From positions 24,420 through 88,419 of the forward strand of contig CAVYJB010000001.1 in NCBI GenBank assembly GCA_963768835.1: 64,000 nucleotides of DNA, read 5' to 3'. A program made the translations under genes and the position numbers. Shown here piece by piece: positions 841 to 54,713 of the stretch (position 1 is the first letter of the stretch; each line of letters starts with the position of its first letter). The DNA is from an uncultured bacterium. GTDB taxonomy: Bacteria > Patescibacteriota > Minisyncoccia > UBA6257 > GWB1-50-10. The notes under the pieces were generated by a model. That model did no database searches, was not told the origin of the DNA, and saw nothing but the letters and a program-made list of their open reading frames with translations.

Positions 841-1380
841 ATGGAACAGAGTGAGTTCCAGCGGCTCGGCCGGAAAACCCTTACCCTCTTCGTTCTGAAG
901 AGGAGCGGTATTGGGCTTCTTCTGCTTGTCCTCTCAATCGTCCTTCTCATCGCCGGCGCCTCTGTCGCCGCCGTCGTTACAGGAGGAAGGATTGCGTTTC
1001 TTGTTGCTCTCGTCGTGCTTCTCGTGGCTGTCGGTATCGGTTGGCTCGAGTACGCTCGCTATAAAATCAGCCTGCGAAGCGATTCGATCCAGATATCGAG
1101 AGGCGTCCTCGAGGAAGAGGAGATAGGGGTTCCGTACCGGCATATCGAGGATGTCGCCATCCATCGCTCTCTGCTCGACCAGATTATCGGAGTCTCGAAC
1201 CTGACCCTTTCCATTACAAGTTCGGACAAGGACCTCACGGACCAGGTTGGCGCAAAGGTGATCGTACCCTCCATCGATCGCAAGTTGGCGGAGGATATCC
1301 AGCAGGAACTCATGAGCCGGGCGAATATCGAAGATATCAAGGTAGATTCCAGCCGTCCGCCTGCGGCTTCCCCGCTCTAG
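841..1380 (+). CDS. Membrane protein with bacterial PH (bPH_2/YdbS-like) domain
   Basis: Two N-terminal hydrophobic helices followed by a ~80-aa domain resembling bPH_2 (DUF304). Confidence 0.55.
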   Translation: MEQSEFQRLGRKTLTLFVLKRSGIGLLLLVLSIVLLIAGASVAAVVTGGRIAFLVALVVLLVAVGIGWLEYARYKISLRSDSIQISRGVLEEEEIGVPYRHIEDVAIHRSLLDQIIGVSNLTLSITSSDKDLTDQVGAKVIVPSIDRKLAEDIQQELMSRANIEDIKVDSSRPPAASPL

Positions 1381-10491: not shown

Positions 10492-11982
10492 ATGAAGAAA
10501 TCAATTAAAATAGCGGTCGCACTTGCTTCCATGACAGGAACGGTAGCCTTGGTCGCGATTCTCTCGGCACAGGCAGCGACACCGCTTGCGGTTAGCTGCG
10601 CCGGAGTAGTCTCCACGAACACGATTACATGGAGCGCTGCGCCGACGGGCGGAGCAACGCCCTACACGTTTCTTTGGTCCGGCGATTCGAAGGTTGCAGG
10701 TAGCACGAGTACATCGATCCTTGCCACCTATGACGAGAATGGCACGTATACCGCGGATATCCAAGTGATTGACGCGTCCTCGAGCGTCGCGACCTCCACA
10801 TGTTCTGCGATGGTGACGTCCTTTCCGGCACCGACCTCGACTCTCACGGTCGTCGTCGGAGTAAGCGGCGGATCGGCGATACCCGCAAACTTTAGCGTCG
10901 GTGTCACGGGCGGAAACCCTCAACCCTCGTCCTTTGCGGGTAGCGCGGGAACCGCGGTGACGCTGAACTCGAGCTCGTCCTACTCGGTGGCGGAAACTTC
11001 CATCCCGGCGAACTATTCGCCGTCCTATGGAGCGAACTGTTCCTCGAGCGGGCTTGCGCCGGGTACTTCCGCGGTCTGTACCATCACAAACACATACACG
11101 CTCTCACCCGTGACGACATCTACGGTGAATGTCACCGTTGCGGTGAACGGCGGGTCCGCCGTGCCGGGCAACTTCATGGTCGCCGTGACGGGCGGAAGCC
11201 CGAACCCCGCATCCTTCCTCGGAAGCGCGGGAACGGCCGTTGTCCTGAATGCGAATTCATCCTACTCAGTGACGGAGACCTCGCTGCCGGCTAACTACGG
11301 TGTGACCTACAGCGGCGGATGCGCGTCTTCCGTCGGACTGTCGCCGGGAAGTTCTGCGGATTGCACGATCACGGATACCTTCAACGCCGCAACGACCACG
11401 CCACCTCTGCCGCGGGTGAATCCGCCATCGCTCTCGATCGGGCCGAACGGCAGCTTCTTGGGCCGCGGGATGACCGTTACGAGCGTGGGCACGAACACCT
11501 TTCAGGCACAGGTCTGGGGCATCACGTACACCGTGAATTGGTCTGGAAACCTTCCGACGTTCTACCTCCGCGGCGGCAACACGGCGACCTCGACGCCCTC
11601 CGAGCAGCTCCAGGTCGGAGACGAAGTGGGCGTGATGGGGAAAGTGGACCCGTCCGCACCGCTTGTGGTAAACGCCAACATTGTTCGTGACTACAGCATC
11701 ATTAGACCTCGCCCTCCTCGTTCCGAGAGAGGTAGCAATGGAGGTAACGGAGTAGGTTACGGCAATAACGGGAATGGTATCGGCTGGGGATGGGAAAACG
11801 GAGCGACTCCGAACGCGGGAGCCTCGGTGAACGCAACTGTCACGCCACCGACGATTCCTGCGATTCCGACGATCCCCGGGAATCCCGGAGATTTCCAGGG
11901 TCGCATGAACAACCTCATGCAGCAGTTCAACCGGCTGAGCCAGATGTTCAAGAATCGCTTTGGGAATGGGAAAGGGCACTAA
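10492..11982 (+). CDS. Secreted repeat protein with two ~90-aa Ig-like tandem domains and a Gly/Asn-rich C-terminus
   Basis: Signal peptide; two copies of ...VTGG.P.P.SF.GSAGTAV.LN...SYSV.ETS.PANY...Y...C.SS.GL.PG.SA.CTIT.T..; tail GSNGGNGVGYGNNGNGIGWGWENG. Confidence 0.7.
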   Translation: MKKSIKIAVALASMTGTVALVAILSAQAATPLAVSCAGVVSTNTITWSAAPTGGATPYTFLWSGDSKVAGSTSTSILATYDENGTYTADIQVIDASSSVATSTCSAMVTSFPAPTSTLTVVVGVSGGSAIPANFSVGVTGGNPQPSSFAGSAGTAVTLNSSSSYSVAETSIPANYSPSYGANCSSSGLAPGTSAVCTITNTYTLSPVTTSTVNVTVAVNGGSAVPGNFMVAVTGGSPNPASFLGSAGTAVVLNANSSYSVTETSLPANYGVTYSGGCASSVGLSPGSSADCTITDTFNAATTTPPLPRVNPPSLSIGPNGSFLGRGMTVTSVGTNTFQAQVWGITYTVNWSGNLPTFYLRGGNTATSTPSEQLQVGDEVGVMGKVDPSAPLVVNANIVRDYSIIRPRPPRSERGSNGGNGVGYGNNGNGIGWGWENGATPNAGASVNATVTPPTIPAIPTIPGNPGDFQGRMNNLMQQFNRLSQMFKNRFGNGKGH

Positions 11983-13788: not shown

Positions 13789-14178
13789 ATGAACCGCGTC
13801 ATACATTTCGAGATACAGGCGGACAACATCGAGCGGGCGAAGAAGTTTTACGAGAACGCCCTTGGTTGGAAAATTAGCCAGATGATGACGAAGGAGAAGG
13901 GCGGGATGGACTACTGGGGCGTCACGACGGGCGAGGGAACCCCGGGTATCAATGGCGGCCTTTATCAGCGACCGACCGCCGGAGATAAATTCTACCTCTA
14001 TGACTGCACAATCGAGGTCAAGGATATCGATGTAGCCATCGCGGCGGTCAAGGCAAACGGGGGCACCATTACGAAGGAGAAGTCAGAGATCCCTGGCGTG
14101 GGCTTGTTTGCAGGCGCGAAAGATACAGAAGGGAACCGTTTTGGTCTCATGCAGCCGACCGGCTGGCAGGCAAAATAG
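13789..14178 (+). CDS. VOC family (glyoxalase/bleomycin-resistance fold) protein
   Basis: MNRVIHFEIQADNIERAKKFYENALGW and a C-terminal beta-alpha-beta-beta-beta repeat typical of VOC proteins. Confidence 0.8.
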   Translation: MNRVIHFEIQADNIERAKKFYENALGWKISQMMTKEKGGMDYWGVTTGEGTPGINGGLYQRPTAGDKFYLYDCTIEVKDIDVAIAAVKANGGTITKEKSEIPGVGLFAGAKDTEGNRFGLMQPTGWQAK

Positions 14179-14629: not shown

Positions 14630-15619
14630 CTATGCAAGGTGTGTCCGGTCGGGCCAACGAGAGGATACGTACGTTGCTACCTCACTGAGCTTTAATGCGG
14701 TCGTTGTATTCCCCGTGCGGACGTAGAAGTGCTCGCTATTGTCAGTCCGGAGATAGACCGGATGCGCACTCTGGGCGATGTCCACTACGCAGACATCGTG
14801 GCCGTCACGTTTCTCGAACCAAAGCTTCACGAGGTGCCGAAGCTCCGGCCCTATCATCGCATTAAAAACCTGGGTGAAATGATTCTCAAAGCCGTCGCTG
14901 GTGGGTCGTTGGATGGTGCCATAATCGTTTTCGAGACCCAAGGTGTGCCGCGTATCATCCACCCCAAGAACGATGCGGCCGCCGTCGGAATTCAGGAAAG
15001 CTGCCACCGATTTCATCGTCGCTTTCTCGAGGTCCCGGTTCACGCGTCCCACATGAGGATCGAAACGCAACGAGGACTTGAACTCCAAGCGCTCGTCCTC
15101 TTCCTGCTGTACGAGCTTCGAAAGATCGGGGCGTTCGCCGGAGGACGCGCGGACAGTTCGTGCGATGTCGGCAAAATGCCCCTGCGGTGAAGAAATATCG
15201 CCTAACACAAAGGGTTTCTCTCCTTGCACGGCTATCCGGACCGTTCCATAACGGAAAAGTTTCCCAAGGAAACCGACAGAGAGCGTCACCGAAGGTGCTT
15301 CTGAGATCCGCACTTCCCGGCGATTGCGCAGAAAAACGCCACGTTCATGGACGAGAATATTCGGGCGAATAACATAACGTTCGCGATACCATCGGAGAAA
15401 GGCGTAGATAGTAATGAGAAACTGGGCCCCGGAGAGAAAGAGTATCTTGGCCGTCTGGTAGGGGAAGAGCCCGGCAAGTGGCAGCTGGCTATACAGGTCG
15501 TACTTAGTGCTCCCACCGCCTAAGGAGAGCAGGTAGGCGGCGAAGGCCGCCACTTCAATAAATGCGAAGGTTCGAATGAGAACGACGGGGCTTCGGCGCA
15601 CAACCATTTCGTTCGTCAT
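14630..15619 (-). CDS. Membrane-anchored bPH_2 - AlbA_2 (Schlafen-like putative DNA-binding) fusion protein
   Basis: N-terminal 2 TM plus bPH_2-like region; C-terminal ERLEFKSSLRFD...KSVAAFLNSDGGRIVLGVDDTRHTLGLEND matches AlbA_2 (PF04326) consensus. Confidence 0.65.
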   Translation of the reverse strand: MTNEMVVRRSPVVLIRTFAFIEVAAFAAYLLSLGGGSTKYDLYSQLPLAGLFPYQTAKILFLSGAQFLITIYAFLRWYRERYVIRPNILVHERGVFLRNRREVRISEAPSVTLSVGFLGKLFRYGTVRIAVQGEKPFVLGDISSPQGHFADIARTVRASSGERPDLSKLVQQEEDERLEFKSSLRFDPHVGRVNRDLEKATMKSVAAFLNSDGGRIVLGVDDTRHTLGLENDYGTIQRPTSDGFENHFTQVFNAMIGPELRHLVKLWFEKRDGHDVCVVDIAQSAHPVYLRTDNSEHFYVRTGNTTTALKLSEVATYVSSRWPDRTHLA

Positions 15620-15682: not shown

Positions 15683-15847
15683 CTATTGGCTTAACTTAAA
15701 GCCCAACCAAATCCCAACGATTCCTCCGACGCCACTCAAAAGAATCGATGAAAAGGAAAAAATGTCGCCTCCCCAAAGAGCTGGCAGAAATCCTCCAATG
15801 GTAGATCCTACGAATAACCCGATCCAAATAAAGGGATTAGATTTCAT
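15683..15847 (-). CDS. Small hydrophobic membrane protein (54 aa; GlsB/YeaQ/YmgE-like?)
   Basis: My own translation MKSNPFIWIGLFVGSTIGGFLPALWGGDIFSFSSILLSGVGGIVGIWLGFKLSQ; below the 60-aa ORF-track cutoff. Confidence 0.35.
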   Translation of the reverse strand: MKSNPFIWIGLFVGSTIGGFLPALWGGDIFSFSSILLSGVGGIVGIWLGFKLSQ

Positions 15848-16017
15848 ATTTTATGAAAGGTCAGGAACCTAAAATTGTGCATGAGCGATCCTCTAGGTAA
15901 TCCAATAATACCTTACCTCCCTTGTTCAAGTCATCGCATACCTTGCCCGGAGCCATATATGGTGGTATATCTTCAATCAGAAATGACACCTCTCCTTTAG
16001 TAGTAATATAAAGACTC

Positions 16018-17829
16018 ATGGGAACTTCTTCTCAAGTTAAGAACAAAAAAACCGGCGGTCTTACGCGAGACGTCTTTTTTGAAGGAATCAAGGCTATTGC
16101 GAAGTACTTGAAGCCTCATAAGAAGATGCTTGTTATTCTCACTGTTTTCGGCTTATTGAATGCCGCCGCGCAGGCGTTTGTTCCTCTTATCTCCGGGAGA
16201 ATTTTTGATGCGATTATTGCGATTTCAAGAAATTCTCTCCTGCCGCTTGTCCCGATATTTACCCTGATCATCGTTTGGCTTTTGCTCCAGTTGAGTAGTA
16301 ATACGATCAGTTGGTGGACCGGCTTTCAAAACGATAAATTAAGCACGCTGTTAAGCGCTAACTACATTGCAAAGGGGTTCGGAAAGCTCTTCGAATTGCC
16401 GTTGGCGTTTCATACCACGCAAAAGCAGGGCGACGTCAACGACCGCATAAATCGCGCCTCGAACTGGCTCGATAATATCGTGAACAATGTGCTCCTTACC
16501 CTTCTACCAAACTTTCTCAGCATCGTGATCGCGCTCGTTATTACGGTCTATATTAATTCAACTTTTACGCTCATTCTTATCGGAGCAATCATCGTTTACA
16601 GCCTCATCCTTTGGAGCGCGGTCCCGCGCCTCACGGGCCTTCAAACGAAAATGCACCGTGCCTACAACGTTGCTTATGGCAACGCCTACGATGCGATGGG
16701 GAATATTCGAGAAATAAAACAAGCGGCAACCGAAAAACAGGAGCAGAAGAAAATCTACAACAACTTCATTGACCGCGCTGCGCAATTCTGGGTGGACATG
16801 AACACCATCTTCCAGCGATTGAATTTTTTTCAAAAGACGGTTGTGACCCTGACGCAATTATCGATTTTTACCTTGTCGGTCTTTTTCGTGAAAAACGGAA
16901 TGTTGACTCCCGGCGGACTTGTCGCGTTCAACGGTTATGCCGCGATGATCTTGGGACCATTCGTCATCTTGGGGCAGAACTGGCAAACCATCCAAAATGG
17001 GTTGGTTGCAATCGTTCGCGCGGAAAAGATACTTGCGACGCCGACCGAAAATTACCTTCCCAAAAACGCCGTGGCACCCCAAACGCTACGAGGGGAGGTG
17101 GAATTCGAAAACGTATATTTTTCTTATAAGAGCAGCGAGCAAACCCTCGGGGGGATTTCTTTCCACGTGAAGCCCGGAGAACGCGTGGCCTTGGTGGGCG
17201 AATCAGGGGTGGGCAAGACAACAATCATCGATTTGCTTTCCGGTTTTTACTTCCCGCAGCAAGGGAGAATTCTTATTGACGCTATCGACATTAAGAGAAT
17301 GAACTTGACGAAATATCGATCCCGCATCGGCGTTGTCCCCCAGGAACCGACGCTATTTAACGACACGATTGAGGCGAATATCCGTTACGGTAACCAGGGT
17401 AAATCGCAGGATGAAATGATCGCGGCTGCAAAAGAGGCCTACGCACATGAGTTCATCGAATCATTTCCGAAGAAATATAAGCAAGTCGTGGGCTGGCGCG
17501 GCATCAAGCTTTCTATCGGGCAAAAACAACGCATTGCCCTCGCGCGGGCATTTTTGCGCAATCCTGATATCCTCGCTCTCGACGAGCCGACGTCGGCCCT
17601 TGATGCAAAATCCGAACATCTGATCAAGGCATCGCTGGTAAAGCTAATGGAAGGGAGAACTAGTTTTATTATTGCCCATCGCCTGAGTACAGTGCGCGAA
17701 GCGGATATGATTCTAGTACTGAAGGGCGGCAAAATCGTTGAGCGAGGCAGCCATCAAGAGCTCATCAAGATTCCTGACGGCGTATACCGGTCTCTCTACG
17801 AACTTCAAATCGGATTCGCGGCCCAATAG
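16018..17829 (+). CDS. ABC transporter, fused permease/ATP-binding exporter (MsbA-like)
   Basis: Six-TM N-domain; Walker A GESGVGKTT, signature LSIGQKQRIALARA, Walker B ILALDEPTSALD; visibly lower GC than flanks. Confidence 0.9.
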   Translation: MGTSSQVKNKKTGGLTRDVFFEGIKAIAKYLKPHKKMLVILTVFGLLNAAAQAFVPLISGRIFDAIIAISRNSLLPLVPIFTLIIVWLLLQLSSNTISWWTGFQNDKLSTLLSANYIAKGFGKLFELPLAFHTTQKQGDVNDRINRASNWLDNIVNNVLLTLLPNFLSIVIALVITVYINSTFTLILIGAIIVYSLILWSAVPRLTGLQTKMHRAYNVAYGNAYDAMGNIREIKQAATEKQEQKKIYNNFIDRAAQFWVDMNTIFQRLNFFQKTVVTLTQLSIFTLSVFFVKNGMLTPGGLVAFNGYAAMILGPFVILGQNWQTIQNGLVAIVRAEKILATPTENYLPKNAVAPQTLRGEVEFENVYFSYKSSEQTLGGISFHVKPGERVALVGESGVGKTTIIDLLSGFYFPQQGRILIDAIDIKRMNLTKYRSRIGVVPQEPTLFNDTIEANIRYGNQGKSQDEMIAAAKEAYAHEFIESFPKKYKQVVGWRGIKLSIGQKQRIALARAFLRNPDILALDEPTSALDAKSEHLIKASLVKLMEGRTSFIIAHRLSTVREADMILVLKGGKIVERGSHQELIKIPDGVYRSLYELQIGFAAQ

Positions 17830-17911
17830 AGGAGCGGGTGTCAATAAGGGTCGTAAAACCGTCCTTGAAATGGCCCCCCGACTGGGGTTTAAAAACATCC
17901 GCTAACCTAGT

Positions 17912-18580
17912 CTAATATTCAAATCGTGCTCCTGAATCGGTGGCAAAAGCGATTTTCTCACCTACTCCAGACGTTTCCCTGACAATGAAATCGATTCCGT
18001 CACTTAGGATTTTTATGAATGCACCGTTCTCAATGTCCGGAAACCCTTTCCGCTCTGCAAAACCAATATGTATCAAGAATGCACGCAAGATACCGCCATG
18101 CGTTACCACCAAAACCGTCTTGCCTGGTGACGCAACTGCCACCTCCCTCAAAAAGGTGATCATCCTACTGATAATCTCAGGATCGCTCTCGATGTTATCT
18201 GGATAGGCGACTTCCTTTCGGGCTTCTTCCGACAATTTCCGCAAATTTTCGAAAAACACTTTCGTTCGTTCCGCATAATCTTCATATTGCTTCCCCTCAT
18301 GAATACCATAGCTTCTTTCTCTTAGAAGCTCGGATGTTTGCACAGCCAATTTCTTCTCCAATGCGATGATTTCTGCGGTTTGTCGCGCGCGGGCTAAATC
18401 AGAAGAGTAGATAGAATCGAAATGAACGTTTTTAAGTTTCTGAGAAGTTTCGCGCGCCTGTGTCTCTCCTTGGGCCGTAAGAGGCATATCCTTGTGCCCC
18501 ATGATAATGCCCTTGGCGTTTCCCTCAGCTTCACCATGACGGACAAGATAAATCGTGCAAAGATTGTTATGTTCTTTCAT
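17912..18580 (-). CDS. Histidine phosphatase family protein (phosphoglycerate mutase-like)
   Basis: LVRHGEAEGN catalytic motif and SDLARARQTA; AT-rich. Confidence 0.85.
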   Translation of the reverse strand: MKEHNNLCTIYLVRHGEAEGNAKGIIMGHKDMPLTAQGETQARETSQKLKNVHFDSIYSSDLARARQTAEIIALEKKLAVQTSELLRERSYGIHEGKQYEDYAERTKVFFENLRKLSEEARKEVAYPDNIESDPEIISRMITFLREVAVASPGKTVLVVTHGGILRAFLIHIGFAERKGFPDIENGAFIKILSDGIDFIVRETSGVGEKIAFATDSGARFEY

Positions 18581-18904: not shown

Positions 18905-19345
18905 ATGACGGCGAAACACGTTGTCGCAGACGACCTGTACGGAAAGTTCTCCAAGCGGATCTGGGAACTCGACCGTCGCGTTCTCGAGGGAACCATTCCC
19001 ATCGAGGATGCGTTGGATGTGGTGCAAAGGATATTCGACGGAACGTTCCCAAAATCGCTCCCCCCGGTGCCGCTCCCCGAACTTATCTCGACGGCGCTTG
19101 CGGAAATCGTCGAGGAAAAGAAAAGAGGTTACTTCTTCCCCGACGAACGGTTCCATCACGCCGAGATCGGGCGTCGCCTCTTCTTCCGTCGCCACTGTGG
19201 CACACGCGCTCTCCAGGTGAGGTTTTACCACCTATGGACATATGACCATGGCATCAAGCAGGTCAGGCGTTCGTATGACGACATGGCGCTGTGCCCGGTC
19301 TGTGGATTCTTTTGGGACGTCCAACCGACCGCTCACAATGATTAG
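18905..19345 (+). CDS. Hypothetical protein
   Basis: RBS gaagggg 8 nt upstream; followed by a terminator; C-terminal CPVCG motif. Confidence 0.45.
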   Translation: MTAKHVVADDLYGKFSKRIWELDRRVLEGTIPIEDALDVVQRIFDGTFPKSLPPVPLPELISTALAEIVEEKKRGYFFPDERFHHAEIGRRLFFRRHCGTRALQVRFYHLWTYDHGIKQVRRSYDDMALCPVCGFFWDVQPTAHND

Positions 19346-19414: not shown

Positions 19415-19484
19415 AGATTTGACTCGACTGGGTTGACGCTGCCGGTCCGCCGGTGGAACAAAGCCCGCATTTCCAGGCTACAAA

Positions 19485-19528
19485 ACGCTCTCTCCGGTCT
19501 CCCACGATACTGCGCTCAAGGTGGCTGC
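19485..19528 (+). repeat. Direct repeat copy A (distal att-like site): tRNA-Gln 3' terminus plus trailer
   Basis: acgctct(ct)ccggtctcccacgatactgcgctcaaggtggctgc, near-identical to 20598..20639. Confidence 0.75.
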
Positions 19529-19612
19529 CGCGACTATATTCTCACTCGACCCCGAAAAGTATTGAAAAATCTACACTCGACTCTAAAAACCTCGGTTCGA
19601 ATCCAGGACGGG

Positions 19613-20119
19613 TCATTTATTTACCCGATAATGCAGTTGAATTTCATTATCGGTGATTTTCTTTTGCCCCACGAGCTCCAGTTTCCGCTCAAAGCCTTTG
19701 TCCTTAAAAATTGGTATTCCTCGACCGATAACGATCGGCTCAATGTCTAAGTAGATTTCGTCAACGAGATTTTCAGCCAGGAACGAGGCGTTAAGAATGC
19801 CGCCGCCAGCGACAATGACTTCCTTAAAATCTTTCAGAAGATCGAGAGCTTCCTTTGGTGAATGAGCAACCAGGTGGTTGGGAGCTAACGTTGCGAAATC
19901 TTCCCCTGAAACCGCTACGATGGTTATACCCTTCAATTCGGCAAATTCGGGTTGTTTCGTGAGAATGTGATAGGTTCTCCGCCCCACCACGACACATCCT
20001 GCCGTGCGTATTACCAAACTGTAGCTATCCCACTCTTCCTGGGAAATCCAGCTTGTGTCGTCGTCGCTTTTGGCAATCACGCCGTTTATGCTGATTGCCA
20101 TGTAGAGAATTACTTTCAT
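19613..20119 (-). CDS. RibD C-terminal domain / dihydrofolate reductase-family reductase
   Basis: MKVILYMAISINGVIA ... RRTY ... VIVAGGGILNASFL pattern of PF01872; AT-rich. Confidence 0.75.
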   Translation of the reverse strand: MKVILYMAISINGVIAKSDDDTSWISQEEWDSYSLVIRTAGCVVVGRRTYHILTKQPEFAELKGITIVAVSGEDFATLAPNHLVAHSPKEALDLLKDFKEVIVAGGGILNASFLAENLVDEIYLDIEPIVIGRGIPIFKDKGFERKLELVGQKKITDNEIQLHYRVNK

Positions 20120-20126
20120 AGTGGCG

Positions 20127-20519
20127 TTATTTCAGAATCTCAGAAATCTTCTCCCGTGGAATGATGCGTACCCTCACTTTGTCCATTTTGAGGATATAAG
20201 CCTTCATGAGGCGGTGCAACCCATCCAGAATCAGCCATCGTCCTTTGTTTTCCATGATATCAATGGGGTGCCGCAGGTCCGCCTTCATGGTCCGCTCGTA
20301 TTCCTTCTGGTATTTGCTGGGGTTCTCGATAATGTCCCTGGATTTCAGGTTATAGATACCACCCTCATGCCAGTGGAAGGGGACATCGAAATGCCAGGTG
20401 AGTTCATTGATATCCATCTCAGAAACCGGTACCTCAAGGGCCCAGACCTTCCTCTCATCCCAAGAGAAATCAAACCCCACATCTTTGATGATTTTGGGAA
20501 AATCTTTCTTCAGGTTCAT
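20127..20519 (-). CDS. Hypothetical protein, possibly ParB-like nuclease domain
   Basis: WLILDGLHRL resembles the ParB/Srx-fold DGxHR motif; AT-rich; domain call is weak. Confidence 0.45.
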   Translation of the reverse strand: MNLKKDFPKIIKDVGFDFSWDERKVWALEVPVSEMDINELTWHFDVPFHWHEGGIYNLKSRDIIENPSKYQKEYERTMKADLRHPIDIMENKGRWLILDGLHRLMKAYILKMDKVRVRIIPREKISEILK

Positions 20520-20597
20520 GTTTCAGCTCTCTTAGTTCGAATCCAGAGAGGGTCACGGGTTCTGGATTCGAACCGACGTTCAAAAATGCTGATAAAC

Positions 20598-20639
20598 ACG
20601 CTCTCCGGTCTCCCACGATACTGCGCTCAAGGTGGCTGC
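20598..20639 (+). repeat. Direct repeat copy B, overlapping the tRNA-Gln 3' end
   Basis: Matches 19485..19528 apart from a 2-nt indel. Confidence 0.75.
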
Positions 20640-20706
20640 GGGGCCTGGATTCGAACCAAGATACCATGGTTCAGAGCCATGTGTCCTACCATTAGACGAC
20701 CCCGCA
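20633..20706 (-). tRNA. tRNA-Gln (anticodon CTG), CCA encoded
   Basis: Manual fold: acceptor TGCGGGG/CCCCGCA (U1-A72), D-stem GTCT/GGAC, anticodon stem CATGG/CCATG with loop CTCTGAA, T-arm CTTGG-TTCGAAT-CCAGG, G73, CCA; 74 nt. Confidence 0.85.
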
Positions 20707-26710: not shown

Positions 26711-27370
26711 TTAATCGTGAACCAGATGCTTCGTATACCCAAGTGCGACCAATTTATTATATGCGTCCCAAACCTCATCCGGTATTTCCTGATGAATCTG
26801 GAATCCCTTTTCCGGATAAATTCTTATTCTCTGCAAATAGCCAACCATAATATTTATAATAAAATCCTTCGATAACTTTTCATTAGGGTAGTTTTCGAAA
26901 GAGATTTGCGGTGAAGTAACGATAAGCTCTTTTCCGGGCCATACCTTTTCGAAGGTCGCATAGGAGCGCCGTTCCATATATGGATTTTGGACCAGGATTA
27001 TTCTCTTCGGGTTCAAATGGCGTTTAGCGAGAAGTTGTTTAGTAAGTTCAATATTTTCACCGGTGTTTCTGGATGTATTTTCAATGAGGATTTTATTCTC
27101 AGGAACCCCCATCGAGATCGCACGTTTTGCGAATTCCTCGGCTTCAGATGTTCGCCACTCAGCGGGAGTCAATCTGCTTCGTCCTCCGGAAAAAATGACA
27201 AGCGGAGCCAATCCTTCAAAGAATAATTGTGCTGCTCGCTCAGCAACTCTAATATCGTTACTGCCAAGGGCTAAAATGCAATCTGCTTTTTCAGGTTTTT
27301 GATGAAGGTTGTGGTAATCCCAAACGATCTTAGCTAATCGGTTAACATCGGTAGTTTGATCCATGACCAT
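26711..27370 (-). CDS. DUF218 (YdcF/ElyC/SanA-like) domain protein
   Basis: ADCILALGSNDIRVAERAAQLFFEGLAPLVIFSGG pattern of DUF218; markedly AT-rich compared with flanks. Confidence 0.7.
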   Translation of the reverse strand: MVMDQTTDVNRLAKIVWDYHNLHQKPEKADCILALGSNDIRVAERAAQLFFEGLAPLVIFSGGRSRLTPAEWRTSEAEEFAKRAISMGVPENKILIENTSRNTGENIELTKQLLAKRHLNPKRIILVQNPYMERRSYATFEKVWPGKELIVTSPQISFENYPNEKLSKDFIINIMVGYLQRIRIYPEKGFQIHQEIPDEVWDAYNKLVALGYTKHLVHD

Positions 27371-27499
27371 GCTTACAATCTAGCAGATTTGAAACAAAAA
27401 CGAACGAGCGTGGTCGACCATCCTATCGCCGTAAATGAATTGATCCCTCAAGTCAGTACTCAGTCTCTTACGGCGGGGTCTAGATTCAAACTTTCGTAG

Positions 27500-27583
27500 T
27501 GCGCGGGACAGGATTTGAACCTGCATGCCCTTACGGGCGCTACCACCTCAAGGTAGTGCGTCTGCCAATTTCGCCACCCGCGC
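27500..27583 (-). tRNA. tRNA-Leu (anticodon GAG), type II, CCA not encoded
   Basis: Manual fold: acceptor GCGCGGG/CCCGCGC, long D-loop with GG, anticodon stem CTACC/GGTAG with loop TTGAGGT, long variable arm GCCC-GTAA-GGGC, T-arm GCAGG-TTCAAAT-CCTGT, A73. Confidence 0.85.
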
Positions 27584-39918: not shown

Positions 39919-41055
39919 TCAGCGCCGTGCGAGGCCGAGGACCGCCTGGGCCAGAAGATGAGCCGCGTCGGGTTTGTAGAACGCCCGGGCCGCCGCCTCC
40001 ATCGCTGCCCGCCGTTCGGGCTTCCCGACAATCCCCTCGAGCTCCCGAAGAACGAGATGGGGACCCAAATTATCCTCCGCAAGAAGCACCGCCGCGCCCG
40101 TCGAGGCATACTCGAAGGCGTTTGCGTGCTGGTGATTCCCGGCCGCACTCGCGAGCGGCACGAGAAGCGCGGCCCGGCCGAAGTAAGCGAGCTCGTAAAT
40201 AGATCCAGCGCCCGCCCGTTCCATAACGATATCGGCAGCTTCGAGAGCCCGGCGGAGTTCGTACCCGGGAAGAAAACTGATACTGCGGTAGCGTGTCCGG
40301 AGCGCGGGATCCAAATCCCGGAGCGCAAGCCCTAGGGTTTCCTTCACCGCTTTTTCATTTCCACTCCCCACTTGGTGGAGCACCTGATAGAGCGGAAGCA
40401 GCATGCTAAGGTTATCAATGATAAAGCGGTTCAATGCCGCGGCGCCTTGGGATCCCCCCAGAACAAGCAGGAGGGAGATATGGGGATCAAAGCCGAGTTC
40501 ATGTTTCGCTTGCGATGTTTCCACTCGGTCCCCCAGGAGATCGGAGCGAAGCGGGTTTCCCACGAGCGCCACCTTTTTCGCCGGGAAGTAGCGGGCGGCA
40601 GCCGCGAAGGCAATACCAATACGCTCCGCAAAAGGCGCGGAGAGACGATTCGTGAGGCCTGGCACCGCGTCAGACTCATGAATGACGACGGGAATTCGAT
40701 AGAATCGCGCCACAAGAACCACCGCCAACGCGCCTGGCCCTCCTTTTGAGAAAACCGCGTCGGGCATCAAGATATAAAGGTGGACGAGCGCCTGGGCAAG
40801 CCCGATGCAGAACTTGGGAACATCAAAAAGATTTCTTAAATCGAAATATCGTCGCAGCTTGCTCGACAAGATGCGGCGTATGGGAATTCCGCGTTCCTCA
40901 ATCTCGACGTCCCACGGGCTCGGGGGGCCGATATAGTAGAGCTCAAGCGTACCCTTTGGTTCTTTTAGGAGCTCTTCCGCAACGGCCAGGAGCGGATATA
41001 GGTGGCCTCCGGTTCCCCCACCAGTCAGGACAATGCGTGTGCGGTCAGTGGTCAT
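39919..41055 (-). CDS. murG: Undecaprenyldiphospho-muramoylpentapeptide beta-N-acetylglucosaminyltransferase
   Basis: LTGGGTGGHLYPLLAVAEEL N-terminal motif and MurG C-domain. Confidence 0.92.
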   Translation of the reverse strand: MTTDRTRIVLTGGGTGGHLYPLLAVAEELLKEPKGTLELYYIGPPSPWDVEIEERGIPIRRILSSKLRRYFDLRNLFDVPKFCIGLAQALVHLYILMPDAVFSKGGPGALAVVLVARFYRIPVVIHESDAVPGLTNRLSAPFAERIGIAFAAAARYFPAKKVALVGNPLRSDLLGDRVETSQAKHELGFDPHISLLLVLGGSQGAAALNRFIIDNLSMLLPLYQVLHQVGSGNEKAVKETLGLALRDLDPALRTRYRSISFLPGYELRRALEAADIVMERAGAGSIYELAYFGRAALLVPLASAAGNHQHANAFEYASTGAAVLLAEDNLGPHLVLRELEGIVGKPERRAAMEAAARAFYKPDAAHLLAQAVLGLARR

Positions 41056-42164
41056 CGGCGCGTGCGGTATCTAGAAATATTAACGATGACACCGCCCATC
41101 GTCAAAAGAACGGTGAGTGCGGTCCCCCCATAGCTCACGAACGGCAAGGGCAACCCCGTCAAAGGAATGACGCCTGAGATGGCGGCAATATTCATGAAGG
41201 CCTGGAACCCGATAAGGGAAGCGAAACCAGTCGCAAGTAGCCGCCCAAAATTATCAGGACAGGAACGGGCGATTACGAGACCCCGAAGGACAAGAAGCAG
41301 GTAAACCACGACAAGAGCGGCGGCGCCTACAAACCCCAACTCATTCGCGATAACCGCGAAGATGGAGTCCCCAATGGGCTCCGGAAGCGCGTTGAGCTTC
41401 GTGGTGGATTGGCCGTATCCCACGCCCCATAAACCCCCTGCTCCAATCGTGATAAGCGCCTGATTCGCCTGATAGGAAGCTCCGTAGGGATCGCTCGTTG
41501 GGTTTAGAAACGTTGCAACGCGAGCAAAGCGATAAGGCGTAATGGTCACGAGAAGCGAAAGTACCAGACAAGCGAGGAGTCCTGCAACCGCAAGGAAACG
41601 CAGACGTGCCCCCGCGGTGAAGTATGTGAGAATCGAAGCGCCAAAAAGCACCACCGCTGTCGAGGTGGAAGGTTGAAGAAAGAGCAGGCCCATCACCATT
41701 CCGAGAAGCACCAGAAAGGGCAGGAATCCATCCTTCCAATTCCGACTACGCGCCTGGTTACGACTGACCCACACCGCGAGATACATAAGGAAAGCTAATT
41801 TTAGAAGTTCGCCCGGCTGAAACGTGATAGAACCCACGTGGAGCGCACGAGCACTTCCTTTCGCGCCAAATCCTAAAGGCGTGAAAACGAGGATAAGGAG
41901 AACAATAGATACGATAAGAAGCGGCGTAGCCCAAGATCCCCAGCGACGATAGTATACGAAGGCCCCTAAGAAAAACCCGGCGATGCCCGGCAAGAGCCCC
42001 AGCATCAGCTGGTGCTTCAGATAGTAATAACTGTCGCCGAATTGCGCTTTCGCAAGGTCCGAGGAAGCGCTCGTGAGCATCACGAGTCCAAAGACCGTGA
42101 GGACCACGAGGAGCGATATGAACGCGTAGTCCGGCGCAGAGACCCTTGGTTTCCCGGTAGCCAT
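41052..42164 (-). CDS. ftsW: SEDS-family peptidoglycan glycosyltransferase FtsW/RodA
   Basis: Ten TM helices with conserved SEDS blocks; 4-nt overlap with murG. Confidence 0.9.
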   Translation of the reverse strand: MATGKPRVSAPDYAFISLLVVLTVFGLVMLTSASSDLAKAQFGDSYYYLKHQLMLGLLPGIAGFFLGAFVYYRRWGSWATPLLIVSIVLLILVFTPLGFGAKGSARALHVGSITFQPGELLKLAFLMYLAVWVSRNQARSRNWKDGFLPFLVLLGMVMGLLFLQPSTSTAVVLFGASILTYFTAGARLRFLAVAGLLACLVLSLLVTITPYRFARVATFLNPTSDPYGASYQANQALITIGAGGLWGVGYGQSTTKLNALPEPIGDSIFAVIANELGFVGAAALVVVYLLLVLRGLVIARSCPDNFGRLLATGFASLIGFQAFMNIAAISGVIPLTGLPLPFVSYGGTALTVLLTMGGVIVNISRYRTRR

Positions 42165-42168
42165 GGGT

Positions 42169-43668
42169 TCAAGCGCTTGCCCGTAGGATGGAGCCCTTGA
42201 GGGTGTTTGTGACGGCTCCTTCGCGCAGAGCCGGGACTCCGTTCACGAGGACGTCGGTCGGCCTAAAATCGCGTAGAACGACGAGGTCGGCTGCGTATCC
42301 CTCACGGATAAAGCCCCTGCCTTTCAACCGGTACTTCTTCGCGGGGATCCCGGTCGCTTTTGCGACGGCGCGCTCAAGTGGCATTAAGCTCTTTTCAGCA
42401 ACAAGGGAGAGGAATGCGGGGAATGTACGGCAGCTTCGTTCTTGCTTCAACTCACCCTCCCCAAGTGCGGTGCCGTTTGAGGCAATGATGGAGGTCCCTT
42501 TCGTGAGAAAGCTCTCAAGCGCGTTCATACTGACATCCTTGTAAAAAAGAATGGTGCCAAGGCGTGTCATTCTGAGGAGGCGGAGGAATGCCGCCTCGAA
42601 TGGTAGCCCTTGGTTCGCCGCGAACTGCTGAACTGTTTTCCCCTCAAGAAACTTCAGTGCCGGGTCCTGCACATGACCAATCACAAGATCTGTCGCGGCG
42701 AACCTTGAGAAGTATTCCAGGAGGCGTGCCTCGCTCATGGACGATAGAATGTGGTCCAGCATGACGTGTACGCCGCCATCCTGTACCCATTGGGGTAGGA
42801 AGGTATAAATTGCCATCGCGAGGGTATCAAAGGGGCATACATCAAAATGGATATGAATCGTCGCGGACGCGCTCTCGATGAGATTCACGGCTTCCTCGTA
42901 GAGCGGCACGTACGCGCGGCGCGGCTCCAGGTGACTTATCTCCACGTTTACACCGGTCGCTTCCGCGAGATGGAGTGTTTCGCGGACGGACTCCATGATG
43001 TTCTGCTCCACGTTCCGAAGATGCGTTGCATAGACGCGACCAGAAAGCGCCGCAACCTTCGCGAGCGCCTCGATCTCGTAAGGCGCCACACGGCGGGAAT
43101 GGACGTACTCTAGTCCGGTAGAGAAACCGAACGCGCCCTCCGCGAGCGCTTCGCGGATCATGAGCTTCGAGCGCTCGAGTTCCCCTTCCGTGAGATCCCG
43201 AAGTTGGTCGCCGATCAAGGCCCGGCGGATAGTCGAGTGTCCCACCAACGTCCCGAAGTTAACGCCGAGTCCCTGCGTCTCAAGAACCGCGAGGAACTCT
43301 TTCATGCTCCTCCAGTTTACATTTACACGCGACGGTTCCCCCCACTTCTTGATGGGATCCAAAGACCCTGTCGGAAGCGGCGCAAGGGATGCTCCGCAGT
43401 TTCCCCCAATAGTGGTTGTGACGCCCTGACGAATGAAGTCGCGCTGATAGGGTTCGGAAAACAGCGAGAGGTAGTGATCCGAACCCGTGTCGATATCCAC
43501 AAAACCTGGCGTTACGAGGGCGCCCGTCGCATCAATGACTACATCGGCCCTCTCGCGAGGGAAACTCCCGCGCGGGGCAAAGACGCCATCCTGGATCAAC
43601 ACATCTTCCTGTTTCGGCGTTTCCCCGCTTCCGTCATAGACTACGCCGTTCTTGATGAGCGTCGTCAT
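42169..43668 (-). CDS. Amidohydrolase-family protein (N-acyl-D-amino-acid deacylase-like), with an atypical metal-binding motif
   Basis: LIKNGVVYDG ... VIDATGALVTPGFVDIDTGSDH in place of the canonical DxHxH; YATHLRN block; start at MTTLIKNG. Confidence 0.7.
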   Translation of the reverse strand: MTTLIKNGVVYDGSGETPKQEDVLIQDGVFAPRGSFPRERADVVIDATGALVTPGFVDIDTGSDHYLSLFSEPYQRDFIRQGVTTTIGGNCGASLAPLPTGSLDPIKKWGEPSRVNVNWRSMKEFLAVLETQGLGVNFGTLVGHSTIRRALIGDQLRDLTEGELERSKLMIREALAEGAFGFSTGLEYVHSRRVAPYEIEALAKVAALSGRVYATHLRNVEQNIMESVRETLHLAEATGVNVEISHLEPRRAYVPLYEEAVNLIESASATIHIHFDVCPFDTLAMAIYTFLPQWVQDGGVHVMLDHILSSMSEARLLEYFSRFAATDLVIGHVQDPALKFLEGKTVQQFAANQGLPFEAAFLRLLRMTRLGTILFYKDVSMNALESFLTKGTSIIASNGTALGEGELKQERSCRTFPAFLSLVAEKSLMPLERAVAKATGIPAKKYRLKGRGFIREGYAADLVVLRDFRPTDVLVNGVPALREGAVTNTLKGSILRASA

Positions 43669-43736
43669 TATCCTCTCATTGTACCGCAAACCATACGGCC
43701 CCAACAGCGCATAGCGTGCCCGCCGTCATAACCTCC

Positions 43737-43895
43737 CTAATGCACCGCCGTGAACGCGACGCCGAGATAATAGGGCCAGAGGATGATGGCAAATACCGCC
43801 TTCCAAAACGCGAGATGGAGAAAGCCGATGCTGAATAACCAGCCGATAACCCAGAGAATTCCCATACCATGTTGTTGTGCCGCGGCCTTTTTCAT
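43737..43895 (-). CDS. Small membrane protein (52 aa)
   Basis: My own translation MKKAAAQQHGMGILWVIGWLFSIGFLHLAFWKAVFAIILWPYYLGVAFTAVH; fills the gap between the amidohydrolase and mraY; below the ORF-track cutoff. Confidence 0.3.
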   Translation of the reverse strand: MKKAAAQQHGMGILWVIGWLFSIGFLHLAFWKAVFAIILWPYYLGVAFTAVH

Positions 43896-43913
43896 AGTTG
43901 GAGCAATAAATAG

Positions 43914-44960
43914 TTAGACAAAATGCGAGAGAAAAAAGAGAACGAGGCCCACGATGGCCATCACGGCCGAGATAATCCAAAACCGCATGGTAACCTGACT
44001 TTCGGGCCACCCCAGACCTTCAAAGTGATGGTGAATGGGTGTCGAGAGAAAGACTTTCTTCTTTCGAAGTTTCTTGCTTATAAGCTGGACAATCACCGAA
44101 CCGGACTCCACCACGGGGATGAAGGCGAAGAAGGGTAGGAGAAGTACGGTGTTTGTAAGCATCGCCATCACCCCTAGGGTGATACCAAGAGACATCGAGC
44201 CCGTATCCCCCATAAAGAATCTTGCGGGATAAATGTTGAACCACAGGAATGCGAGGAGCGCGCCCAAAATGGTTGCGTCCATCGCAGCCAGATCATAACG
44301 CTGGAGGACGAAGGCAACGACCGCCAAGGCTCCAAAGGCAAAGAAGAAAGTGCCGGCCGCGAGACCGTCTAATCCGTCGGTTTCGTTCGCGGAAAAGGCG
44401 GTCGCAACCAAGATGAAAAGGAAAATGGGGATATACCAGGGTCCCACCTGGACATTCCCAATGAAAGGGATGGAGAGCACGGTCCAGTTCAGCTTGAAGT
44501 AGAACCACCAGGCGCCTATTGCAGCGATGGCTGTATAGATGAGAAGTTTCTGCCGCACCGCGAGTCCCCCGCCATGCGGCCCTTTCCCTAAAATACCAAA
44601 GAGATCGTCCACTAGGCCCACAACCGCAGCGAGCGCCAAGGCGAAGAGCGGAAGAAAAGTCTCCGCACGATTCATGAAGTTCAGATAGTTTGCGAAGCCA
44701 TCAAAAAGGTTCCCGAGGAGGGCAAAGAGGAGCGCCAGAAGAAGCACTGTCCCCCAGATGATAATGCCACCCATCGTCGGCGTATTCCCCTTATCCTTGT
44801 GAAATTGGTGGAAAATAGGTGCCGTTTCAGCTGTCCGGATGTTCCTTTTTCGGAGATTCCATCGATAGAGACTGTGGAGAATAAACGGCGTGAGGATGAG
44901 CGCGACGAGGAACGCCAGCGCGAAGAGGATGAGAGTGCGAATTCCTTCAAAAGCAACCAT
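43914..44960 (-). CDS. mraY: Phospho-N-acetylmuramoyl-pentapeptide transferase
   Basis: MGGIIIWG, GLDGLAAG, DTGSMSLG motifs. Confidence 0.93.
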   Translation of the reverse strand: MVAFEGIRTLILFALAFLVALILTPFILHSLYRWNLRKRNIRTAETAPIFHQFHKDKGNTPTMGGIIIWGTVLLLALLFALLGNLFDGFANYLNFMNRAETFLPLFALALAAVVGLVDDLFGILGKGPHGGGLAVRQKLLIYTAIAAIGAWWFYFKLNWTVLSIPFIGNVQVGPWYIPIFLFILVATAFSANETDGLDGLAAGTFFFAFGALAVVAFVLQRYDLAAMDATILGALLAFLWFNIYPARFFMGDTGSMSLGITLGVMAMLTNTVLLLPFFAFIPVVESGSVIVQLISKKLRKKKVFLSTPIHHHFEGLGWPESQVTMRFWIISAVMAIVGLVLFFLSHFV

Positions 44961-53645: not shown

Positions 53646-53716
53646 TGGGAGGTCGTCTAACGGTAGGACATGGGCCTTTGGAGCCCAGTATGAAGGTTCG
53701 ATTCCTTCCCTCCCAA
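53646..53716 (+). tRNA. tRNA-Gln (anticodon TTG), CCA not encoded
   Basis: Manual fold: TGGGAGG/CCTCCCA acceptor, D-stem GTCT/GGAC, anticodon stem TGGGC/GCCCA with loop CTTTGGA, T-arm GAAGG-TTCGATT-CCTTC, A73. Confidence 0.8.
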
Positions 53717-53911
53717 CTAGAACAGTCCGTGTGGCACCAGAAAAAGCAAGCGCTCTTTACCCCCACCGCCCTTGGACTGTGGACAAATCTCTGTATAATC
53801 TAGGGTAGTAGTTTGGGGGCCTAGGGAAACCCCACAGTAGTTCTTTCCAATCAAATCGAGAATGGAATGCTCTGGAACCTAAAAGGTCGAATTGTGATAG
53901 TACCTAACCGA

Positions 53912-54619
53912 ATGAAGAAAACGCTTGTCATCGCTGTTGCCCTGTTTGTAGGACTCGGAACCGGAGCCGTATCGGGAGTGGCACATGCCGCAAACTCCAA
54001 TCTCAGTGAGCACGACCGGATCGTTCTCCAGTCAGAACTCGATGCGCTGAAGGGCACTCTTCTGCAACTCCAGACGGAATATGCGGTCCTTGCCCCCTCC
54101 GCTCCGGTCGCCGTAACCCCACCCGAGGAATCAGGGACCGTGTGGGATCCTACTGAACTCTCCGCATTGAAGGACGGGCTCGACATGTTGGAGGTGACCC
54201 TTGCAGAGCTCCAGCTTCGAGTTGAAGCAGGCGCTGTGCCGGTTGCGAATCGCGCGGCCATTGCCGTGAGCCTCGGTTCTCTGGGAAATGCTCTTGCCGC
54301 TATCGGTGATAGCATGACCCCGACGGTTGCCCAGTCGCAAAGCTCAGCTCCGGCAGCAGAATCGGCCCCCATCGTAACCCAGGCGCAACCCCCTGTTCCG
54401 CAGAGTAACACCGACCTTAATTCGGCCCCTGGGAGCGCCCCTGCCGCGGCTGTAAACAACCAAGCCCTAGCATCGGAGGCCCAGAACGCAGGTCCGAACG
54501 GGATGGTGGTTGCGGGCATCGTAATCCTGATTGCCGCCGTCATCGCTATCTGGTTTTGGAGAGCAAGGGCAGGTGCAAAAGCACCGAAACCGACTCCGAC
54601 ATACCCCAAAAGGGCATAA
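53912..54619 (+). CDS. Secreted Ala/Pro/Gln-rich protein with C-terminal membrane anchor
   Basis: Signal peptide MKKTLVIAVALFVGLGTGAVSGVAHA; coiled-coil segment; C-terminal TM plus basic tail. Confidence 0.55.
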   Translation: MKKTLVIAVALFVGLGTGAVSGVAHAANSNLSEHDRIVLQSELDALKGTLLQLQTEYAVLAPSAPVAVTPPEESGTVWDPTELSALKDGLDMLEVTLAELQLRVEAGAVPVANRAAIAVSLGSLGNALAAIGDSMTPTVAQSQSSAPAAESAPIVTQAQPPVPQSNTDLNSAPGSAPAAAVNNQALASEAQNAGPNGMVVAGIVILIAAVIAIWFWRARAGAKAPKPTPTYPKRA

Positions 54620-54656
54620 AAAGAAGATCCGCTTGGCCAGGCGGATTTTCTTTTTA
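54620..54656 (+). terminator. Rho-independent terminator
   Basis: atccgc ttggccag gcggat hairpin followed by tttctttttat. Confidence 0.7.
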
Positions 54657-54694
54657 TGCCGTTTTCCTTGTGCACTTTATCTACCATCCCCATT

Positions 54695-54703: not shown

Positions 54704-54713
54704 AGAGGTTGGC

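Follow-up and report, generated by a model that had tools for sequence, protein, structure and literature searches.

The segment 19490-20639 of the 64,000-nt stretch of patescibacterial DNA analysed here (the window, a part of the 353,519-bp contig CAVYJB010000001.1) adjoins the 3' end of the gene for tRNA-Gln(CTG), carries two genes and is bounded by two identical copies of a 39-nt direct repeat. It is reasonably probable that this segment is an integrated, non-autonomous mobile cassette, similar to a cis-mobilizable element (CIME), which needs a recombinase supplied in trans. In an initial annotation the segment was regarded as the decayed remnant of an element that had integrated site-specifically into the tRNA 3' end, with formation of attL and attR attachment sites. 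The present analysis partly supports this interpretation: the integration is corroborated by a permuted order of the same site parts in a metagenomic contig and by the logic of tandem copies in another genome, but the decay is not borne out. All coordinates refer to the window. In the recombination labels, O is the core, P and P' are the arms of the element, and B and B' are the chromosomal sides; numbers preceded by L denote comparison loci, 113 in all.

Layout of the cassette at tRNA-Gln(CTG)

Self-comparison of the window yields an exact 39-nt direct repeat (19490-19528 = 20601-20639; 0 of 100 shuffles gave a match) with a start-to-start spacing of 1111 bp, which confirms the earlier observation that a sequence with the 3' end of tRNA-Gln(CTG) is repeated about 1.1 kb away. 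If two mismatches or a 2-nt indel are permitted, the repeat extends to 59 nt with 88% identity (19483-19541 / 20594-20652). The 39-nt sequence is composed of the last 7 nt of the tRNA as delimited by ARAGORN and of 32 nt of its trailer. On the tRNA strand it reads GCAGCCA-CCTTGAGCGCAGTATCGTGGGAGACCGGAGAG, where GCAGCCA comprises the last three acceptor bases, the discriminator and the encoded CCA. The tRNA gene call was verified by the ARAGORN run, and all the features described in the initial annotation were found in place. The locus is formed by the following parts:

20633-20706, minus: tRNA-Gln(CTG) (ARAGORN; Rfam RF00005, 60.8 bits), intact, CCA encoded; chromosomal (B) side of attL
20601-20639, minus: core O, proximal copy (attL), exact 39-nt repeat; sequence on the tRNA strand GCAGCCACCTTGAGCGCAGTATCGTGGGAGACCGGAGAG
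20520-20600, minus: P' arm, element side of attL, spanning from the core to the ATG of cargo gene 1
20553-20574, minus (sense): element 's', T-arm-like 22-mer within P'
20534-20555, plus (antisense to the tRNA): element 'a-prime', T-arm-like 22-mer within P'
20127-20519, minus: cargo gene 1, putative ParB/Srx-fold protein of 130 amino acids (aa) (SbnI match; AlphaFold2/Foldseek)
19613-20119, minus: cargo gene 2, RibD_C/DHFR-like reductase of 168 aa (Pfam)
19594-19615, plus (antisense to the tRNA): element 'a', T-arm/acceptor-like 22-mer, start of the P arm
19529-19593, minus: remainder of the P arm, terminating in a pseudo-tRNA 3' end, GAGTGAGAATATAGTCGCG and then GCAGCCA
19490-19528, minus: core O, distal copy (attR), exact 39-nt repeat, with the flank B' beyond it

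On the tRNA strand the distal repeat is preceded by GAATATAGTCGCG, a degenerate look-alike of the T-loop and acceptor (GAATATAGTCGCGGCAGCCA versus GAATCCAGGCCCCGCAGCCA, 15 of 20 positions). The flank B' past the distal core differs from P', save for a short weak resemblance across the 2-nt indel. Among the three tRNA genes of the window (the other two at 27499-27583 and 53646-53717) only tRNA-Gln(CTG) encodes CCA, and the repeated core includes this CCA. GCAGCCA is also the sequence of the pseudo-tRNA ends in the window attR and in the metagenomic contig L111. The core-borne CCA fits the idea that the 3' end of this tRNA is derived from the element.

Degenerate T-arm-like sequences had been reported inside the repeat-bounded segment, and three such 22-mers were located there. 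The stop codon of cargo gene 2 overlaps with element 'a', which recurs in direct orientation as 'a-prime' (18/21), and 's' together with 'a-prime' forms a 13-14-bp hairpin just upstream of cargo gene 1. These three orphan 22-mers are confined to the cassette; elsewhere in the 64 kb, GGTTCGAATCC-like matches correspond to the three genuine tRNA genes. The sole strong structure is the T-arm hairpin in P', whereas the repeat does not fold stably.

Both cargo genes are encoded on the tRNA strand, the RibD_C gene starting 7 nt after the ParB-like gene. A promoter-like site lies upstream of tRNA-Gln(CTG) (20772-20744), and the cassette may be co-transcribed with the tRNA, since no terminator was predicted between them. 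Together with the occurrence of the trailer motif after tRNA-Gln in three genomes and behind two anticodons, this would suit a functional RNA or transcription element of the tRNA locus (a processing signal, a terminator or a small RNA) that is duplicated because it is needed at both places. Such a role of the repeat is highly improbable in view of the lack of a stable fold and of any Rfam family match to it: in a scan of 19.0-21.2 kb at E<=10 the tRNA was the sole match. Moreover, the motif stands without a preceding tRNA in L111 and at the distal copies. It was found in only 3 of approximately 30 tRNA-Gln loci examined (L111 carries the motif without a tRNA), a distribution that does not suit a host processing signal.

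According to the mechanism proposed for the cassette, its excised form would be a circle of 1111 bp carrying a composite P-O-P' site (approximately 200-210 bp) and the two-gene cargo. The circle would recombine in Campbell fashion with a chromosomal site formed by the last 7 nt of tRNA-Gln(CTG) and the next 32 nt, and a crossover within the 39-nt core O would produce attL (tRNA-O-P') and attR (P-O-flank). The tRNA would stay intact because O supplies its 3' end including the CCA. The predicted attP junction of the circle is ...GAATATAGTCGCG-GCAGCCACCTTGAGCGCAGTATCGTGGGAGACCGGAGAG-CGTGTTTATCAGC..., and the predicted empty attB is ...CCAGGCCCC-GCAGCCACC...GGAGAG-AGCGTTTTGTAGCC.... The T-arm mimics and the look-alike of the tRNA 3' half would be arm or core recognition sites for the recombinase. 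As the cassette encodes no such enzyme, integration and excision would be reliant on a recombinase in trans, from a related autonomous element or from the host chromosome. The element may still be able to move.

Both cargo genes are also present on a Logan contig of 1132 nt (L001, ERR11594402), which ends exactly 30 nt inside each repeat. This contig was considered as a possible excised circle and rejected in this role: its ends fit a k=31 unitig (1072 + 2x30 nt) and are uninformative on circles. The same ends, along with the breaking of short-read graphs at this repeat, could be taken as a hint that a cassette from elsewhere was mis-joined at the tRNA through the 39-nt repeat during assembly. 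An artefact of this kind is extremely improbable: the same architecture is present in the independent assemblies L013, L006, L091 and L111, the cargo is recorded both on the 353,519-bp contig and on the short Logan contig, and any placement of the unitig still needs two copies of the core.

Permuted site in a metagenomic contig and conservation of the arms

The metagenomic Logan contig L111 (1482 nt) holds the closest homolog of the 130-aa protein among the matches listed (83% identity). Upstream of the ParB-like gene it contains, in contiguous order, an 'a' element, a spacer of approximately 60 nt, a pseudo-tRNA end (GAGAATATCGGACCGGCAGCCA), the core, a spacer and the s/a-prime hairpin. The left half of its region 690-904 aligns with the left flank of the distal repeat of the window and the right half with the right flank of the proximal repeat, with a single core. 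The arrangement is P-O-P' in L111 and tRNA-O-P' (cargo) P-O-flank in the window, and this permutation corresponds to the relation of attP, or of an internal tandem junction, to the attL and attR that arise from it by one crossover in O.

The junction in L111 separates a SET-domain gene from the ParB-like gene and the DprA-like gene next to it, so the contig belongs to an array whose cargo differs from that of the window. At 175-240 of the same contig another 'a'-like element (ACCCATCTAGGACTCGAATC) was noticed, which overlaps the stop of a thioredoxin-like open reading frame (ORF). As at the next junction, CGAATCAGTATATAAAAA comes after it, but no core is present. It is possible that single genes in this array are bounded by 'a' elements alone.

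Comparison of the two ParB-like genes gives a measure of the divergence between the hosts. Codon positions 1, 2 and 3 are 85%, 97% and 45% identical, and the fourfold-degenerate sites are identical at 8 of 31 (26%). The latter value is the random level, which means that the neutral sites are saturated. At this distance the core O retains 35 of 39 nucleotides (90%). The P' arm retains 63 of 83 (76%) with the hairpin nearly intact, and the P arm 62 of 95 (65%), including conserved blocks of 22/24 (element 'a') and 16/17 (pseudo-tRNA end). The P-arm part aligns with 690-774 of L111, and the 16/17 block is GAGTCG.GTGAGAATAT. At the level of sequence, the comparison shows purifying selection on the non-coding arms, which are not decaying. 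As the arms were kept despite saturation of the neutral sites, the T-arm-like pieces may be viewed as conserved functional sequence. Probably the three 22-mers and the diverged copy of the tRNA 3' half in P are cis-acting binding sites and not debris, and the most economical role for them would be that of sites for recombination proteins.

This conservation bears directly on the view that the segment is an inert remnant of a once-autonomous island, which has lost its integrase and most of its genes by deletion, is immobile, and retains the T-arm pieces as eroding leftovers of successive integrations. Decay of integrative and conjugative elements (ICE) and integrative and mobilizable elements (IME) with retention of attL and attR is known from the literature (PMC5704250), and partial tRNAs with degenerated elements are found in tRNA-adjacent islands of Prochlorococcus (10.1101/2020.12.28.424599). 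The absence of an integrase, pointed out in the initial annotation as a sign of decay, holds for the scanned ORFs of the window; the conclusion drawn from it is not supported. Despite the saturation of synonymous sites between the hosts, identity in the arms and T-arm-like elements amounts to 65-90%. The repeats are identical (39/39 in the window and 59/59 in L013), the cargo ORFs are intact and no integrase pseudogene was detected beside the element. An inert remnant is therefore unlikely, and a maintained cassette served in trans is the preferred reading.

Recombinase-less units at tRNA-Gln and known mobile elements

A gene for tRNA-Gln (TTG or CTG) lies directly downstream of fmt on the same strand in most relatives. 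The tRNA at 20633-20706 is thus ancestral at its position, and it is the DNA beyond it that varies. In L013 (DATJLR010000002.1) the tRNA-Gln(TTG) is followed by a related trailer (TCTTAGGACGCAGTATCGTGCGTCCAGGGAGCGTC), and there are three copies of the tRNA end with the trailer. The first two copies have 154 nt of O-P' in common (84%); the second and third have in common an identical P-O stretch of 59 nt, its P being a pseudo-T-arm (GTTGCGAATCGTTGCCGGG). The locus has the order tRNA(B)-O-P', P-O-P', P-O-B', the pattern expected of two tandem elements. One unit carries an AAA_18 protein, a serine hydrolase and a short-chain dehydrogenase/reductase (SDR), the other two membrane proteins, an unknown protein and a MOSC protein. 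These units (2.06 and 3.46 kb) yielded no recombinase domain, though three of their ORFs have no Pfam match. In the P' arms of L013 (approximately 11880-11900 and 13935-13955) a second, diverged core motif (CGGACGCGGTATCGGTGG versus AGGACGCAGTATCGTGCG) occurs some 80 nt beyond the core and could serve this subfamily as an arm-type site.

Within the core of L013 there is a perfect 7-6-7 palindrome (GGACGCA GTATCG TGCGTCC), a form typical of recombinase core sites. The 12-mer CGCAGTATCGTG is retained in the otherwise diverged cores of three genomes, including the L013 copies. L014 has a core of the window type, with a one-base variant of the 12-mer (CGCAGTATCGAG), after tRNA-Gln(TTG), where the contig stops. 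An nhmmer search of all 113 loci with a core profile gave no further members.

L006 follows the same design with a different trailer. A 29-nt repeat of this genome's own tRNA end and trailer brackets a cassette that encodes an MvaI/BcnI restriction endonuclease and an N4/N6 methylase, and the tRNA is adjoined by copies of its T-arm that are exact and occur in both direct and inverted orientation. In L091 the order is tRNA-Gln(TTG), a methyltransferase, a ParB-like homolog (77%), a 372-aa unknown protein, an aminotransferase and an antisense copy of the T-arm similar to 'a', with a pseudo-tRNA end about 70 nt past it (a 72% copy of the tRNA end and trailer). Hence units without a recombinase recur at tRNA-Gln in other Paceibacteria (L013, L006 and L091). 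None of the five repeat-bounded units at tRNA-Gln, which belong to different genomes and carry different cargo, has a recognisable recombinase, with several cargo ORFs lacking a Pfam match. This uniform absence would be unexpected if the units had decayed independently. Shorter duplicates of the tRNA-Gln 3' end without clear cassettes, which would suit decay, are present in L019 and L020 and in the DPANN loci L095 and L105.

The search for the enzyme or for a vehicle was extended beyond the cassette. Pfam revealed no tyrosine or serine recombinase and no transposase domain in essentially all window ORFs of >=180 aa and some shorter ones, and six-frame ORFs at 18.58-19.75 kb contained no integrase pseudogene at E<=1. 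In IMG/VR there were 0 matches for two core patterns, the hairpin pattern and ParB-like homologs. No ParB-like homologs were found in GenBank phages, and PLSDB plasmids gave only a 34% Photobacterium match. As these scans returned nothing closer, no phage or plasmid vehicle could be identified. Neither the IMG/VR patterns nor the comparison loci revealed an element in which this core is accompanied by an integrase. The 26 metagenome matches to a degenerate core pattern, which does not match the window itself, were discarded as chance occurrences in unrelated coding sequences. The ParB-like protein was also rejected as a recombinase or a marker of the element, as it is a bare ParB/Srx fold and its homologs occur elsewhere without att features (L093, L099, L102, L108 and L112).

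Several points weigh against a mobile cassette served in trans. No recombinase was identified, the inspected DNA being 64 kb of the 353-kb contig, and neither an excised circle nor an empty site was observed. There is no close relative (Fmt identity <=58%, and a neighbouring gene is an orphan) and hence no empty-site comparison. The segment of identity is almost all trailer, while classical tRNA-targeting elements place it inside the tRNA. This particular core is common to only four genomes, and in the window it has only a weak inverted-repeat core-site pattern with a degenerate right half. The GC content at third codon positions (GC3) of the ParB-like gene is typical of the host, which speaks against a recent import from a compositionally different donor. 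Finally, Campbell integration by homologous recombination over 39-150 nt gives the same topology as site-specific integration.

The last point, along with the failure to find a recombinase, makes it necessary to consider an origin by a RecA-dependent single crossover of circular or transformed DNA over approximately 40-150 nt, or by local duplication of the trailer, with the arms kept as promoter or regulatory DNA. In the window as in L111 the ParB-like gene is immediately preceded by O-P', which could be its leader or promoter, and the repeat of L006 is simply that genome's own trailer. Nevertheless, a promoter role fails to explain the abrupt loss of identity at both edges of the short core and the position of the conserved P, which is downstream of the cargo in the window and upstream of the core in L111. 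In addition, the 12-mer CGCAGTATCGTG is retained in diverged cores, and the palindrome of L013 is as in recombinase core sites. A recombinase-independent origin is thus distinctly unlikely. Probably, a site-specific recombinase rather than RecA made the joint, as the integrated-cassette reading implies.

The CIME concept appears, by analogy, to be the best match to the locus. CIMEs accrete in tandem at att sites in streptococci (PMC5704250) and are listed in ICEberg 2.0 (PMC6323972). Likewise, attL and attR delimit the cassette, which lacks genes for integration or transfer and belongs with tandem arrays whose internal junctions resemble attP (L013 and L111) and which are compatible with accretion. 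It differs in having no known cognate ICE or IME, in its patescibacterial host and in the far smaller units. The recurrent absence of a recombinase together with selection on the arms suggests that the family is non-autonomous by design and not through recent decay.

Genomic islands integrated into tRNA and tmRNA genes by tyrosine integrases, as outlined in the Islander definition (PMC4383910), share with the locus an intact tRNA at one end, a displaced direct repeat of its 3' end at the other, foreign cargo and an attP with a look-alike of the tRNA 3' half. In the cassette the displaced fragment is atypical, being mostly trailer (7 nt of tRNA and 32 nt of trailer); there is no integrase gene, the size is only 1.1 kb, and direct and inverted T-arm mimics are present. 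The locus departs from such islands, from CIMEs and from the islands of Prochlorococcus in its host phylum, its extreme smallness and its trailer-heavy block of identity, and in that selection on the arms goes together with the consistent lack of a recognisable recombinase. The tycheposon islands of Prochlorococcus are another case of repeated integration beside tRNAs in a streamlined genome, with partial tRNAs and cargo left behind (10.1101/2020.12.28.424599). They differ in carrying tyrosine recombinases and replication modules, which no unit here does; the target here is the tRNA-Gln 3' end with its trailer.

The units at tRNA-Gln are small, hold one to four genes, lack a recombinase, are stacked and would be serviced in trans, and in all this they resemble integron cassettes. 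The latter are small recombinase-less units with their own inverted-repeat-type recombination site, which are stacked at one site and serviced in trans. No intI, attI or Pc was found, nor is there a tyrosine recombinase domain in the 64-kb window. By inspection, the R''-L''/L'-R' boxes of attC (GTTRRRY) are missing as well: the junctions are of approximately 200 bp and T-arm-like (GGTTCGAATCC), GTTCGAA falls outside GTTRRRY, and the anchor is a tRNA. Integrative mobile elements exploiting Xer (IMEX) are integrase-less, flanked by direct repeats of the host dif site and mobilised by host XerCD. The core here is not dif-like beyond the heptamer GTGCGCA in L111, the site adjoins a tRNA and the arms are long; inspected against the dif consensus, the core GCGCAGTATCGTGGGAGACC has no half resembling the XerD arm (TTATGTNAAAT). 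Direct repeats of 39-59 nt are far beyond a target-site duplication, there are no terminal inverted repeats and no other copy exists in the window, unlike insertion sequences (IS) and miniature inverted-repeat transposable elements (MITE). The cassette is not an integron cassette, an IMEX, an IS or a MITE.

A broader proposal is doubtful at present and is put forward tentatively. Paceibacteria, and possibly other members of the candidate phyla radiation (CPR), might possess a new platform for cassette capture at the tRNA-Gln downstream of fmt. Small recombinase-less cassettes with sites of approximately 200 bp mimicking the T-arm, acceptor and trailer of tRNA-Gln would be served by a chromosomal recombinase in trans and stacked in tandem. 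Such a platform would be integron-like in function and unrelated in sequence, and would provide very small genomes with flexible genes (restriction-modification, small enzymes, ParB/Srx proteins). The acquisition of accessory genes by Patescibacteria is poorly understood, since their genomes are tiny and recognised mobile elements are few. The locus offers a concrete route: very small cassettes without a recombinase, with selectively maintained att sites, stacked at a conserved tRNA-Gln and carrying cargo that includes restriction-modification and ParB/Srx genes. If the recombinase acting in trans is found, an integron-like gene-capture system would be defined in these lineages, the breaks of assemblies at such loci would be explained, and a natural site-specific integration site would become available for CPR genetic tools. 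If the cassettes are inert, the locus is an ordinary tRNA-linked islet.

Cargo genes and the neighbouring variable DNA

The product of the RibD_C gene matches the Pfam families RibD_C (E=8.7e-18) and DHFR_1 (E=3.9e-5), and its best cluster representative is 62% identical. The 130-aa protein has no Pfam match. It matches SbnI (E=1.4e-4) through the DGxHR motif, and DGLHRL is invariant in 37 of its homologs. The AlphaFold2 model has a pLDDT of 90.5, and the top Foldseek hits inspected all have the ParB/Srx fold, with matches to Srx, Noc, SbnI, PadC, ParB, KorB and Osa at TM values of only 0.35-0.40. Judging from the motif and the model, the protein belongs to the ParB/Srx-fold superfamily with a putative nucleotide-binding DGxHR motif.

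This family has at least 764 homologs, and the 119 non-self matches listed are 66-83% identical. Named hosts among them are Paceibacterota, Wolfebacteria, Sungbacteria, Pacearchaeota and Nanoarchaeota, i.e. CPR bacteria and DPANN archaea. Many of the homologs are on contigs of 1.0-1.6 kb, either as similar repeat-bounded cassettes or owing to the short median contig of the collection. The neighbourhoods are unrelated and the gene stands alone in them: between murD and ftsW, after secA, beside genes similar to those of a type IV secretion system (T4SS), or beside archaeal DisA/RFC. The host Fmt, for comparison, has no non-self match above 58% in 5.8 billion proteins and about 50% among the GTDB species representatives; the Def-Fmt matches are to metagenome-assembled genomes of Patescibacteria/Paceibacterota only. 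The gene at 18905-19345 (146 aa), which flanks the cassette, is an orphan. Homologs of 83% against the 58% ceiling of Fmt, the orphan neighbour and the unrelated contexts are strong evidence that the ParB-like gene moves horizontally. Most of its other contexts are without att features, so the gene would be cargo of the element and not its engine.

In L108 the order is amidohydrolase, murD, ParB-like gene and ftsW. In the cell-wall cluster of the window (41052-44960) the amidohydrolase (42169-43704) is directly followed by ftsW (41052-42164), with no murD between them. The context of the ParB-like gene in L112 is near a GH130 gene, and the window has two adjacent GH130 paralogs (mannooligosaccharide phosphorylase-like, 675 and 640 aa; 54531-58483).

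Both cargo genes had been described as AT-rich, and this stands for whole-gene GC (0.462 and 0.468 against a mean of 0.548, z about -2.2 and -2.1) and, in part, for the RibD_C gene at third positions (GC3 0.51, z -1.9, moderately atypical). It does not stand for the third positions of the ParB-like gene (GC 0.468), where the deficit is in codon positions 1 and 2 and GC3 is 0.64 against a host mean of 0.62. In L111 (41% GC) the GC3 of its homolog is 0.47. Across six loci checked, the GC of the ParB-like gene falls short of that of the locus by 4-9 points (8 below the mean in the window). The ParB-like gene is thus equilibrated with each host, which implies long residence or a donor of similar GC. 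For this reason the compositional argument for the cassette is weaker than first thought.

A larger variable block lies further from the tRNA:

15683-18580, strand not assigned: small membrane protein, ABC exporter and His_Phos_1 genes, low GC

The GC3 z-scores of the small membrane gene, the His_Phos_1 gene and the ABC exporter gene are -3.1, -2.7 and -0.6, respectively, so the first two are more atypical in composition than the cassette itself. The orphan gene 18905-19345, which has host-typical composition, lies between this block and the cassette, and no att-like repeat bounding the block (15.65-18.6 kb) was found. In the nearest relative locus (L009) an SLFN-like gene is about 1.1 kb from tRNA-Gln, with one unrelated hydrolase between them. 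In the window six genes occupy the 5 kb between the SLFN-like gene and tRNA-Gln, none of which has a homolog in the L009 locus. The region 15683-18580 is plausibly an older variable island, which may have been acquired either together with the cassette or separately. The far edge of the variable region is marked by a Schlafen/AlbA_2 and bPH_2 protein (14630-15619, minus) whose homolog in L009 is 51% identical; another bPH_2 protein is encoded near the start of the window (841-1380, plus).

Another T-arm-like sequence, AGTTTGAATCTAGACCCCGCCG (27492-27471, minus), directly follows the 3' end of tRNA-Leu(gag) (27499) and resembles the T-arm/acceptor of tRNA-Gln(CTG) (16/20), not that of tRNA-Leu. 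The next gene, encoding a DUF218 protein (26711-27370), has the lowest GC of the window (0.417, z -3.4) and is absent from relatives with the same tRNA-Leu synteny. No direct repeat bounding this segment was found. The segment 26711-27499 may be a second tRNA-linked islet.

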